Shown here: positions 23,289 through 25,835 of the stretch, one piece after another
Layout: each line of letters starts with the position of its first letter
Position numbering within the stretch: position 1 is the first letter of the stretch
DNA from: a virus
Taxonomy: Duplodnaviria > Caudoviricetes
DNA: 37,105 nt
IMG/VR virus record: IMGVR_UViG_3300036846_001604
Location: 1-37,105 of that record
Reading direction: 5' to 3' (one strand)
Notes under the pieces: model-generated
Told to the model about the DNA's origin: nothing
Seen by the model: the letters and a program-made list of their open reading frames with translations, nothing else
The model's database searches: none
Translations under genes and position numbers: made by a program

Positions 23289-23360
23289 AGCATTGCAAAG
23301 TGGGATTCAAAACGCCTTTAAAGGGCTTTAATAGTGGCGGTAAATACCGGCGTGCAGGAT
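23289..23360. promoter_or_regulatory. Predicted bidirectional late promoter: palindrome 23317-23332 with -10 AATGCT (minus, 23294-23289) and CAGGAT (plus, 23355-23360)
   Basis: Both hexamers lie exactly 22 bp from the palindrome; divergent genes on both sides. Confidence 0.65.
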
Positions 23361-23391
23361 GGAGGGGAACTTATCAGAAGAGGATAACGCA

Positions 23392-23814
23392 ATGACGAAG
23401 ACATTAAACCCCACTATTACTATTACCGTATCAGGCCCGACAGGCTCAGGCAAAAGTCGCGTACTGGCGGCTATTGCGGGCATGCTGAGCCTCACCTGCA
23501 GCAACTGCACTATTGAGACCCCTGACATGGAAGCAGAAATGAAGAAGTACGGGAATAACTACCTTAACTGGCCTAAAGTCCCCAGCAGCACCATTTTTAA
23601 GCTGGAAGAGGTCAACCTGCCAGATAACCACCAGAATAAACCAGCAGGAGAAATCACCCTTGATGACCTGGTGGATCGCCCGGTTCCGGTACATATTCAG
23701 GAACTGATGTGCAAACTCGACATCTCGTTTGAGGAACATCAGGAAACCGACCTGCAGCCAGTGATCGATTTGGTGAACTGGGCGTTACATACCCCTGTTC
23801 ATCCTGCTGACTGA
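23392..23814 (+). CDS. Small hypothetical protein with Walker A P-loop
   Basis: ITITVSGPTGSGKS; SD GAGGA before ATG 23392; 140 aa. Confidence 0.78.
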   Translation: MTKTLNPTITITVSGPTGSGKSRVLAAIAGMLSLTCSNCTIETPDMEAEMKKYGNNYLNWPKVPSSTIFKLEEVNLPDNHQNKPAGEITLDDLVDRPVPVHIQELMCKLDISFEEHQETDLQPVIDLVNWALHTPVHPAD

Positions 23815-23820
23815 ATCGCC

Positions 23821-23981
23821 GGAAAAGAGCGACCTGCCGGGAGGTGCCTAAACCACCGACAGGCCATCAACCCACAGCCATTACCTGTGAGTCAACCGAG
23901 GCTCTTCCGTTCCCGCGAGAACAGAATGAGCCTATGCCATGCTGGCATTGTTTTTCAACTATTGAAAAAGGCTTACAGTAT
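23821..23981 (+). ncRNA. Candidate structured cis-regulatory RNA leader of the methyltransferase
   Basis: Multiple stems found by hand, with mutually exclusive pairings around the SD (see findings). Confidence 0.55.
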
Positions 23982-24752
23982 ATGAAAGAACAATCACTCC
24001 CGATCGTACCGTGGATTGGTGGAAAACGCCGTCTTGCCAGGCACATCCTGCCGCTATTCCCAAAACACACCTGCTACGTGGAACCGTTCTGCGGCGCAGC
24101 GGCATTGTATTTTCTCAAGGACGCCAGCAAGGTTGAAGTCATTAACGACGTTAACGGCGAACTGGTGAACCTTTATCGCGTGGTTAAACACCATCTGGAA
24201 GAGTTTGTGCGCCAGTTTAAATGGGCGCTGGTCAGCCGCCAGATCTACAAGTGGCTTCAGATAACGCCAGAAGAGACACTGACCGATATTCAGCGTGCCG
24301 CGCGGTTCTACTACCTGCAAAAGCAGGCATTCGGCGGCAAGGTTGCGGATCACACCTTTGGCACATCCACCACCAGCACCCCACGATTCAACCTGTTGCG
24401 CATTGAGGAAGAACTGTCACTAGCGCATCTGCGGCTGGCACGTACCATCATTGAGCATATGGACTGGGAGCGATGCGTTGAGCGCTATGACCGCCCGCAT
24501 ACGCTGTTTTACTGCGACCCGCCGTACTGGGGAACGGAAGGCTACGGCGTGGATTTTCCACTCGTGGAATATGAGCGCATGGCGCAACTGGCCACCAGCA
24601 TACAGGGGAAAGTGATCATCTCAGTGAACGACATCCCTGAAATGCGTAAAGCCTTTGCGGGACTGGAGATGCAGTCGGTAGGTATCAAGTACAACCTGCA
24701 GACAACGGGGAAGGCTAAGCCAAAGCGAGAACTGATAATCAGAAATTTTTAG
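23982..24752 (+). CDS. DNA adenine N6 methyltransferase (Dam/D12 class)
   Basis: PWIGGK, YVEPFCGAA (motif I), INDVN, FYCDPPY (motif IV); start moved to ATG 23982; target sequence unknown. Confidence 0.95.
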   Translation: MKEQSLPIVPWIGGKRRLARHILPLFPKHTCYVEPFCGAAALYFLKDASKVEVINDVNGELVNLYRVVKHHLEEFVRQFKWALVSRQIYKWLQITPEETLTDIQRAARFYYLQKQAFGGKVADHTFGTSTTSTPRFNLLRIEEELSLAHLRLARTIIEHMDWERCVERYDRPHTLFYCDPPYWGTEGYGVDFPLVEYERMAQLATSIQGKVIISVNDIPEMRKAFAGLEMQSVGIKYNLQTTGKAKPKRELIIRNF

Positions 24753-24794: not shown

Positions 24795-25103
24795 TCAATG
24801 AAAAAGCCATTTAGCCACAGCCAGGCCAATTGTTAAAGCAGCAAAAATAGACGCTGAAATCCATTTGGTTTGGCTGTTCATTTCCTTACGTATATCACCA
24901 ACTTCTTTATGCAGAGACACTTCCGTTGCGCCCGTACTGCGAATAACGGCGATATCAGTTTTAATCTGAGCAACATCCTCTTCCAGTTTTTGAATTCGCC
25001 TATTCATACCATCACCCCCATCCCCTCCACCTGATTCCTCAGTATGGATTCTTAACTCAGGTTGATCAATAGATTCACGATTCATCTGAAAAATATTAGA
25101 CAT
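24795..25103 (-). CDS. Coiled-coil protein with C-terminal TM helix (accessory)
   Basis: GGGDGGDG linker, RIQKLEEDVAQIKTDI heptads, KWISASIFAALTIGLAVAKWLF TM; start ATG 25103 overlaps upstream stop; AT-rich. Confidence 0.75.
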   Translation of the reverse strand: MSNIFQMNRESIDQPELRIHTEESGGGDGGDGMNRRIQKLEEDVAQIKTDIAVIRSTGATEVSLHKEVGDIRKEMNSQTKWISASIFAALTIGLAVAKWLFH

Positions 25104-25458
25104 CCTCACCTTCCTTACGTGCAAGGTCTTGAGATTTACGTTGTTCGTCAATTAACACCCTAATGCGCCGATAAGAAAAAAGCATCATGTAAGCACAGGT
25201 AGTACATGTCACGCGAAAAACAGGCAACCCTCCAGGCGCGGCAAGAGGAACACCATTGTCAATTACTGCATAATTGAGTGATTCAATAATATTAATGCGA
25301 CCAAACGGCTCCCCAGCATCAAGATCCCTAACCTCTCCCTGTACCTCCCATGATTGATTGTGGCATATCGGACATGTAGGGCTACCCTCAAACCGCTCAA
25401 TGAAATCTATAAATTCTTCTGTGGTTACTGAAGCTGGCTTAACATGAATCTCCTGCAC
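25096..25458 (-). CDS. Zinc-ribbon accessory protein
   Basis: CPIC...CTTC; SD GGAGG before GTG 25458; AT-rich. Confidence 0.75.
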   Translation of the reverse strand: MQEIHVKPASVTTEEFIDFIERFEGSPTCPICHNQSWEVQGEVRDLDAGEPFGRINIIESLNYAVIDNGVPLAAPGGLPVFRVTCTTCAYMMLFSYRRIRVLIDEQRKSQDLARKEGEDV

Positions 25459-25835
25459 CCTTCCTCCAGAAAAAATTGATGGGAACAATTTTAACTATGT
25501 AGTTCTTCGGATTGAGTCTCACTGCCATTCTGGCAAGCTTTATCTCTTGTTGCATTTCCGGCCGGAACGATTAGGAGCCTAATTACTGCTGGTGGCTCTT
25601 TGCAACACTAACTGCAAACCATTTGCATCAAGTCACATTTTATTTGTCTTTACCACTGCGATCCCTTTTGCGGGAAAGGAAGTCGATCACGTTATCTGAA
25701 TCAGGCTCATCTTCTTCCTCTTCCTTTAAGCGCTCGTACTTCCTTGATACAAGATAGATTCTCGGTGGCCCCTGTGATGTTTTGCTTGCAACAGGGGCGG
25801 TAAACGGTTCGTCACGTAACCTCAATTTTGGGACG

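Follow-up and report, generated by a model that had tools for sequence, protein, structure and literature searches.

A predicted cis-antisense RNA family in the leaders of DNA methylase genes of Mu-like and other temperate phages

We analyzed a 37,105-nucleotide stretch of viral DNA (IMG/VR record IMGVR_UViG_3300036846_001604; hereafter the window), which is the record of a Mu-like (transposable) provirus. The region of interest is the leader of a plus-strand gene that runs from ATG 23982 to 24752 and encodes an orphan D12-class DNA adenine methylase of 256 amino acids (PF02086, E 1.3e-26), in keeping with an earlier note on this DNA that had named the gene a methyltransferase. The score of the protein against TIGR00571 was slightly below the cut-off. 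The methylase was 81-84% identical to the enzymes of phages KP12 and PhiKM and ~63-67% identical to phiE125 gp27, VP882 gp37 and B3 ORF48, and the alignment with its closest homologs began at ATG 23982. A search for com with PF10122 gave no match across the whole prophage, which bears out the earlier note in that no com lies nearby. Upstream of the leader we found a small P-loop ORF and a TTTAAA..TTAA box, which we take to be of the Mor/C type; judged from its sequence, this putative late promoter is the likely source of the methylase mRNA. In L005, L008, L212, L214, L220 and L222 the box immediately preceded the leader, and the P-loop ORF was missing at the equivalent place in relatives such as L005, L008 and L220. 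Between the methylase and the repressor there are two minus-strand ORFs (118 and 130 aa; 24795-25488) that converge on the methylase; neither had a Pfam or NCBIfam match and both are likely cargo. The features of the region are as follows.

23310..23358, no strand assigned: divergent Mu-type late-promoter region with the TTTAAA..TTAA box; palindrome at 23310-23329
23359..23814, plus strand: small P-loop ORF, flanked by the late-type promoter box and the leader, with its stop codon 16 nt before P2
23820..23922, minus strand: predicted antisense small RNA of ~103 nt, from fold, covariance model and covariation; 3' end approximate
23821..23830, minus strand: U-rich tail together with the 3' arm of the closing stem P1', whose partner is 23901-23908; from covariation and base composition
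23831..23865, minus strand: 3' hairpin P2' with a conserved GTG-loop-CAC tip, from fold and covariation
23866..23896, minus strand: central 12-bp hairpin P3', the outer part of which relies on G·U pairs found on the minus strand only
23885..23893, plus strand: segment CTGTGAGTC, the principal anti-SD of the mRNA leader, which can instead form the 3' arm of hairpin P3; from the lowest-energy fold and covariation
23909..23922, minus strand: 5' hairpin with a self-complementary CGCG loop (55 A·C against 17 G·U on the plus strand in the family)
23929..23934, minus strand: -10 box TAGGCT of the putative antisense promoter, from TAnnnT conservation; the window copy is without the TG extension
23953..23958, minus strand: candidate -35 box TTGAAA with an 18-nt spacer, from sequence and alignment
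23968..23984, plus strand: methylase start region with SD-like AAGG, spacer and ATG, from which the closest relatives align

The element made up by this leader was searched for in other viruses with a profile, and was identified in 66 out of 80 viral loci picked by methylase homology and in 119 out of 120 picked by DNA pattern. Downstream of the 119 pattern loci we found a D12 methylase (94 loci), com followed by a D12 methylase (11), and com followed by another or undetermined gene (13); one locus was cut off. The copy faced a methylase or com gene in a fixed orientation in 118 of these 119. The 176 parsed loci were reduced to 83 representatives with less than 85% identity, and five mis-anchored ones (L028, L057, L059, L067 and L170) were dropped to give 78. 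For folding tests 73 representatives were used, after removal of three without a -10 match and of L049 and L054, which had mis-called starts. All family-wide counts ignore kinship among the loci. A covariance model, which contains the -10 box, was applied to a further 80 loci (a set that overlaps the first in part) and matched the antisense strand in 73, 67 of them with TAnnnT; among whole genomes it gave a match in 27 of 30. The model also matched the leaders of com-methylase operons, including that of phage B3, and the leaders of lambdoid N6_N4-class methylases. Of 5426 complete E. coli genomes, 2636 had the lambdoid form and 148 the window's form. Across the family the junction sequence CCAAGGC was nearly invariant.

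Several copies departed from the common arrangement. L315 and L325 retained the element before non-methylase ORFs. Six loci (L091, L136, L140, L099, L108 and L152) carried the element and com before ORFs that were non-methylase by tblastn, one of which is presumably a lectin-like bacteriocin, and L091 additionally carried a Proteo-phage-1 RNA. A P-loop NTPase ORF took the place of the D12 methylase after the element and com in L110, L127 and L144. In L324 (107-179) a shortened element with two hairpins only preceded com and an N6_N4-type methylase. Finally, the leader was broken exactly at the -10 box in L209 and L326 (Pantoea stewartii), with ~36 kb between the halves, a pattern that an insertion-sequence event could leave.

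We then considered how the leader folds on the mRNA strand. The helices that the earlier note had drawn by hand were all present where it had placed them, and the region folded far better than its shuffles (z = -4.46, 0/200). The note had proposed a leader that is bistable between a closed state A and a state B, in which a hairpin of 23899-23912 with 23919-23933 (hairpin B) frees the SD and turns translation on. The lowest-energy fold (-58.1 kcal/mol) instead combined hairpin B with an SD-burying helix that the note had overlooked, 23885-23893/23970-23978, with pair probabilities of 0.83-0.98. State A was also closed (-52.2 kcal/mol), while B with the site held open reached -50.2 kcal/mol and lay 3.9 kcal/mol (path estimate) away from collapse into the closed fold. 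The leader is therefore without a stable ON state, and neither the bistability nor an open state B was borne out. State A lay in a deep kinetic well with a path barrier of 20 kcal/mol. The best open state of the leader contained P3 and hairpin B in 53/73 representatives and P1 in 0/73.

The helix formed by 23885-23893 was 80.4% paired with two-sided changes in 5 of 9 pairs and was predicted in 53/73 free leaders; cognate pairs scored above the non-cognate mean in 62/78 (control 29/78). The SD helix of the earlier note was weaker (76.9% paired; 46/75). A duplex-energy test on the anti-SD helix did not distinguish the strands (58/73 either way). The segment TGAGCCT, which had been taken for the anti-SD, proved with its following A to be mainly the -10 box of the putative antisense promoter (75/78); on the mRNA either 23899-23904 or the SD can be the pairing partner of this segment, and the main anti-SD is 23885-93. 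Hiding of the methylase start site by mRNA structure is thus a computational result from the predicted fold and covariation, and the occlusion is modest, as values of at least 8.4 kcal/mol were also found in 10 of 38 other prophage genes. What stands of the earlier proposal is that this is a control region, conserved, structured and non-coding, which is able to conceal the ribosome-binding site of the methylase in the absence of Com and which has no Rfam family. A terminator-like hairpin at 23934-48 was considered as an attenuator and rejected, since it stems from an insertion found in the window copy alone. Among the 64 representatives whose flank was long enough to judge, 37 had an upstream stop no more than 30 nt from P2, so that terminating ribosomes could touch the 5' end of the leader.

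To assign the helices to a strand, we made a strand-symmetric count of non-Watson-Crick pairs in the 78 representatives. The plus-strand A·C/G·U counts were 33/0 for P1, 105/28 for P2, 12/4 for P3 and 55/17 for P4, kinship being ignored. As each A·C of the plus strand corresponds to a G·U in the complementary RNA, we assign the three-way junction to the minus strand, where 205 G·U pairs were found versus 49 on the plus strand. For P1-P4, the conserved mRNA-strand structure expected of a riboswitch was therefore not what we found. On the other hand, the count for the anti-SD helix was 19/44, which places this helix on the mRNA. The covariation check that the earlier note had called for was accordingly answered in two parts: the P1-P2-P3 junction did covary, but as a minus-strand structure, while the base helix of state B did not go beyond shuffles (in a fixed register, two-sided change in 1 of 6 pairs; 479/500 shuffles equally high). 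The aptamer and expression platform of that proposal fared no better: it is on the antisense strand that the junction folds, and at equilibrium the state taken for ON is closed.

The minus-strand structure, evaluated on 43 sequences with kinship ignored, was 89.5% paired and had two-sided changes in 21 of 32 pairs, compared with 77.9% paired in shuffles and 37-58% in slid controls. RNAalifold, unaided, returned the same minus-strand junction. The minus strand folded better than the plus strand in 69/73 representatives, with a predicted RNA length of 99-107 nt. In the window, the minus strand reached -49.2 kcal/mol (z -3.90) versus -32.8 kcal/mol (z -1.96) for the plus strand; in a comparison with random stretches, the strand asymmetry here was -17.5 kcal/mol, a value reached by 4 of 300. 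The covariance model scored 80.8 bits on the minus strand of the window, which was among its training sequences. The predicted RNA consists, in order, of a 5' hairpin, a closing stem, a four-base linker, two long hairpins and a U-rich tail. Its closing stem P1' was 98.1% paired with two-sided changes in 5 of 6 pairs. Sequence 3' of P2' was enriched in pyrimidines and T, with a short and interrupted U tail, and the 3' arm of P1' with this tail (23821..23830) is a likely terminator. In the window (23909-23922) and in most relatives, the 5' hairpin carries at its tip, with few exceptions, a palindromic hexamer whose sequence varies (for example GTGCAC, GTCGAC, TCGCGA or ACCGGT), so that the sense and antisense loops are self-complementary.

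The putative promoter of this RNA was recognized by its -10 box. TAnnnT occurred at this place on the minus strand in 75/78 representatives, against a shuffle mean of 26.7 (maximum 40) and 14 in a plus-strand control. G at -14 was present in 60/75 and T at -15 in 44/75. The -35 was weak across the family, with 27/75 at 4 or more of 6 positions and 5-18 in shifted controls, and compared with its closest relatives the window copy has 12 nt inserted in the spacer. A consensus promoter scan found none where 1.5 were expected; it missed TAGGCT because this box has only 3 of 6 consensus matches. The putative promoter was kept 25-60 nt upstream of the methylase start codon. In five representatives (L098, L115, L123, L128 and L182), which probably form one clade, a LexA-type box of the pattern CTG-N10-CAG lay at exactly -17 to -32 of the putative promoter; this suggests a damage-induced rather than constitutive RNA in those 5/78.

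Support for expression came from a distant relative. The covariance model matched the leader of ECs1780 in prophage Sp9 of E. coli O157:H7 Sakai (34.9 bits, E 7.8e-10), at the position of EcOnc49, a minus-strand Hfq-CRAC peak at 1772764-1772808 listed from three datasets by Tree et al. (PMC4104026, Table S2). With a genome-version offset of ~+135, set with two other listed RNAs as rulers, the predicted start coincides exactly with the 5' boundary as published. Waters et al. (PMC5286369, file 9) list two RNase E-CLASH reads in which the EcOnc49 part starts at 1772808; these parts carry the predicted +1 bases and in one of them the part is the 5' end of the read. In that file the partners are the host mRNAs ECs0662 and ECs3797 (-33.7 kcal/mol for the ECs3797 hybrid), neither read joins ECs1780, and both hybrids are single reads (FDR 0.26 and 0.098). 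EcOnc49 and the window RNA match the same covariance model, share the four-helix fold and a predicted length of 103 nt, lie antisense to a prophage methylase leader, and have 13 identical nt over the -10 box and start, from which the 5' end of the window RNA was placed by analogy at 23922. They differ in that EcOnc49 lies in a lambdoid phage before an N6_N4-class methylase (PF01555), whereas the window is a Mu-like phage with a D12-class enzyme. In Table S2 of PMC4104026 EcOnc49 is an entry without northern size, structure, family or function, and its name occurred in none of the main texts of the literature searched. Both prophage methylases of E. coli EC958 carry the element; we infer that these genes are M.EcoMIV/V of PMC4659465, for which the available text of that paper gives low transcripts and no assignable methylation.

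Comparison with Rfam gave no match in the window at the gathering score and, at E<=10, ctRNA_pGA1 only; no match was found at the element in 20 relatives. The ctRNA_pGA1 (RF00236) match lay on the same strand and at the same place, with 19.7 bits and E 0.3, well below its gathering score of 45. Plasmid counter-transcribed RNAs of this kind are antisense to an upstream leader and refold a downstream ribosome site. The window RNA resembles them in its antisense position over such a leader and would likewise refold the ribosome site, but the element serves a phage late gene and not a plasmid rep gene. PtaRNA1 and SymR are type I antitoxin RNAs, short cis-antisense transcripts over a 5' region that end in a GC-rich hairpin and U tail. 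The predicted RNA shares these traits; however, it has four helices with a closed junction, it spares the SD and start codon, and the partner of the element is a methylase or com. PtaRNA1 (RF01811; gathering score 47 bits) had no match in the window, and the best match among the relatives, to the truncated copy of L324, was 25.8 bits and below that score. Judged by sequence, the opposite strand thus carries what a cis-antisense RNA gene would have, namely a putative promoter (with altered -35 spacing in the window), conserved structure and a probable terminator.

The com-mom system of phage Mu is alike in that mRNA structure conceals the start of a phage DNA-modification gene, which stays off until late, according to the accessible text of PMC6483171, PMC3299994 and PMC3378877, and many copies of the element sit before com-methylase operons. 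In contrast to Mu, the window is without com and its methylase leader is without the Com motif, given as GAGNNCC in the accessible text of PMC6483171: this leader has none and the bipartite form occurred in 0/78 leaders. Where there is a com operon, the element lies upstream of com itself. Furthermore, momP2 of Mu is described in PMC3378877 (available part) as divergent and overlapping Pmom, while the putative promoter of the window faces the leader and has a structured product. A literature search found no description of the element family, which may yet be listed in a large motif or start-site table; the accessible parts of PMC13551039, 10.1101/689075, PMC12197685 and PMC4035088 do not mention the element, and the B. 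thailandensis sRNA supplements of PMC4035088 had no match to three short element motifs. Taken together, we are highly confident that the antisense RNA family exists; the element is a real, widespread and apparently undescribed cis-antisense control cassette, one member of which (EcOnc49) has been catalogued without a function.

As to what the RNA does, we give slightly better than an even chance to the model of a safety catch, in which the predicted cis-antisense RNA keeps the methylase off in the lysogen, alongside the self-locking leader. In the dormant prophage, a host sigma-70 promoter would make the RNA, starting at 23922. The mRNA of the methylase would be open only briefly, with P3 and hairpin B formed and the SD free, until 23885-93 closes over the SD. 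Pairing with the antisense RNA would remove the 5' arm of hairpin B, and the GAGCCU segment would therefore fold straight onto the SD; the sense-antisense duplex would be broken down. In the late phase, transcription would titrate out the antisense RNA, and the methylase would appear when the phage DNA needs marking. In folding tests with the antisense-covered part blocked, the -10 segment paired with the ribosome site in 49/73 representatives, and this state was more closed than that with the anti-SD only blocked in 51/73. A repressing catch would fit the silence of the EC958 prophage methylases (PMC4659465) and the tight control of Mu mom (PMC3378877, PMC3299994, PMC6483171), as far as the available text of these papers describes them. 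Blocking of the whole antisense-covered region changed the mean opening from 7.9 to 7.5 kcal/mol, with 38/73 leaders more open and 27/73 more closed, and made the window slightly more open (8.4 to 6.7 kcal/mol). Equilibrium folding thus gives no sign, repressing or activating, to the control. A candidate pairing of the antisense linker with the SD in trans found no support (42/73).

The opposite sign, in which the antisense RNA is an activator or timer that captures the anti-SD at 23885-93 and frees the ribosome site, so that the methylase would need late mRNA as well as the small RNA, is possible but doubtful. The predicted RNA overlaps the anti-SD and leaves the SD and the start uncovered, blocking of the anti-SD alone opened the site in 58/73 (mean 5.9 versus 7.9), full blocking also opened it in the 38/73 that include the window, and the LexA-type box overlaps the antisense promoter in 5/78. 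However, full pairing also frees the -10 segment, which re-closes the site in 49/73, and a constitutive activator would add little control; the description of the EcOnc49 cultures accessible in PMC4104026 contains no induction step. We regard as rather unlikely the broader proposal of one portable cassette, a 100-nt junction RNA with a two-lock leader and an antisense -10 box doubling as anti-SD, that temperate phages, Mu-like and lambdoid ones among them, took up to license DNA-modification genes unrelated to each other, with the antisense RNA turning translation on by anti-SD capture and wired to the SOS response through the LexA box in one branch. It is unlikely that two overlapping and largely independent functions are present, a self-locking (kinetically leaky) leader and an Hfq-dependent sRNA mainly targeting host mRNAs. 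EcOnc49 is Hfq-bound with host mRNAs as both CLASH partners and copies persist before the non-methylase ORFs of L315 and L325, but both hybrids are single reads at the FDR given above and 118/119 pattern copies face a methylase or com in fixed orientation.

The remaining readings fit less of the evidence. That the opposing promoter outweighs its RNA, with polymerase bound or firing over the ribosome-site DNA to dampen leaky late transcription, would agree with the conserved distance of 25-60 nt from the start codon and with the competing momP2 that Mu sets against Pmom (PMC3378877, accessible text); we hold it improbable, as it leaves the covarying 103-nt structure and the anti-SD helix unexplained. 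It is very improbable that the mRNA carries a riboswitch that senses a ligand or protein and has the three-way junction for its aptamer. The mRNA does have alternative folds with an SD-burying helix, a state A in a deep kinetic well and a nearly invariant CCAAGGC in the junction, but the junction favours the minus strand, state A is closed, P1 occurs in 0/73 open states, Rfam has no riboswitch match, and there is neither a com gene in the prophage nor a GAGNNCC motif in the window leader. The occurrence of the element before com and non-methylase genes (com with another or undetermined gene in 13/119) further argues against sensing of SAM or SAH. Finally, the case by which the earlier note would have been overturned, that the region is coding and the methylase starts at GTG 23844, is hardly credible: the frame is open from 23844 in the window and the PhiKM record annotates a longer start, but an in-frame stop interrupts the leader in 39 of 57 methylase-first representatives and the closest homologs align from ATG 23982.

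Temperate phages must silence their DNA-modifying enzymes in the lysogen and activate them late, and Com of Mu is the sole described system that we found for doing so. The element offers an RNA-based answer for phages without com. One model unites the leaders of D12-class and N6_N4-class methylases, the element merits an Rfam family, and the orphan RNA EcOnc49 gains a family, a structure and a probable target.
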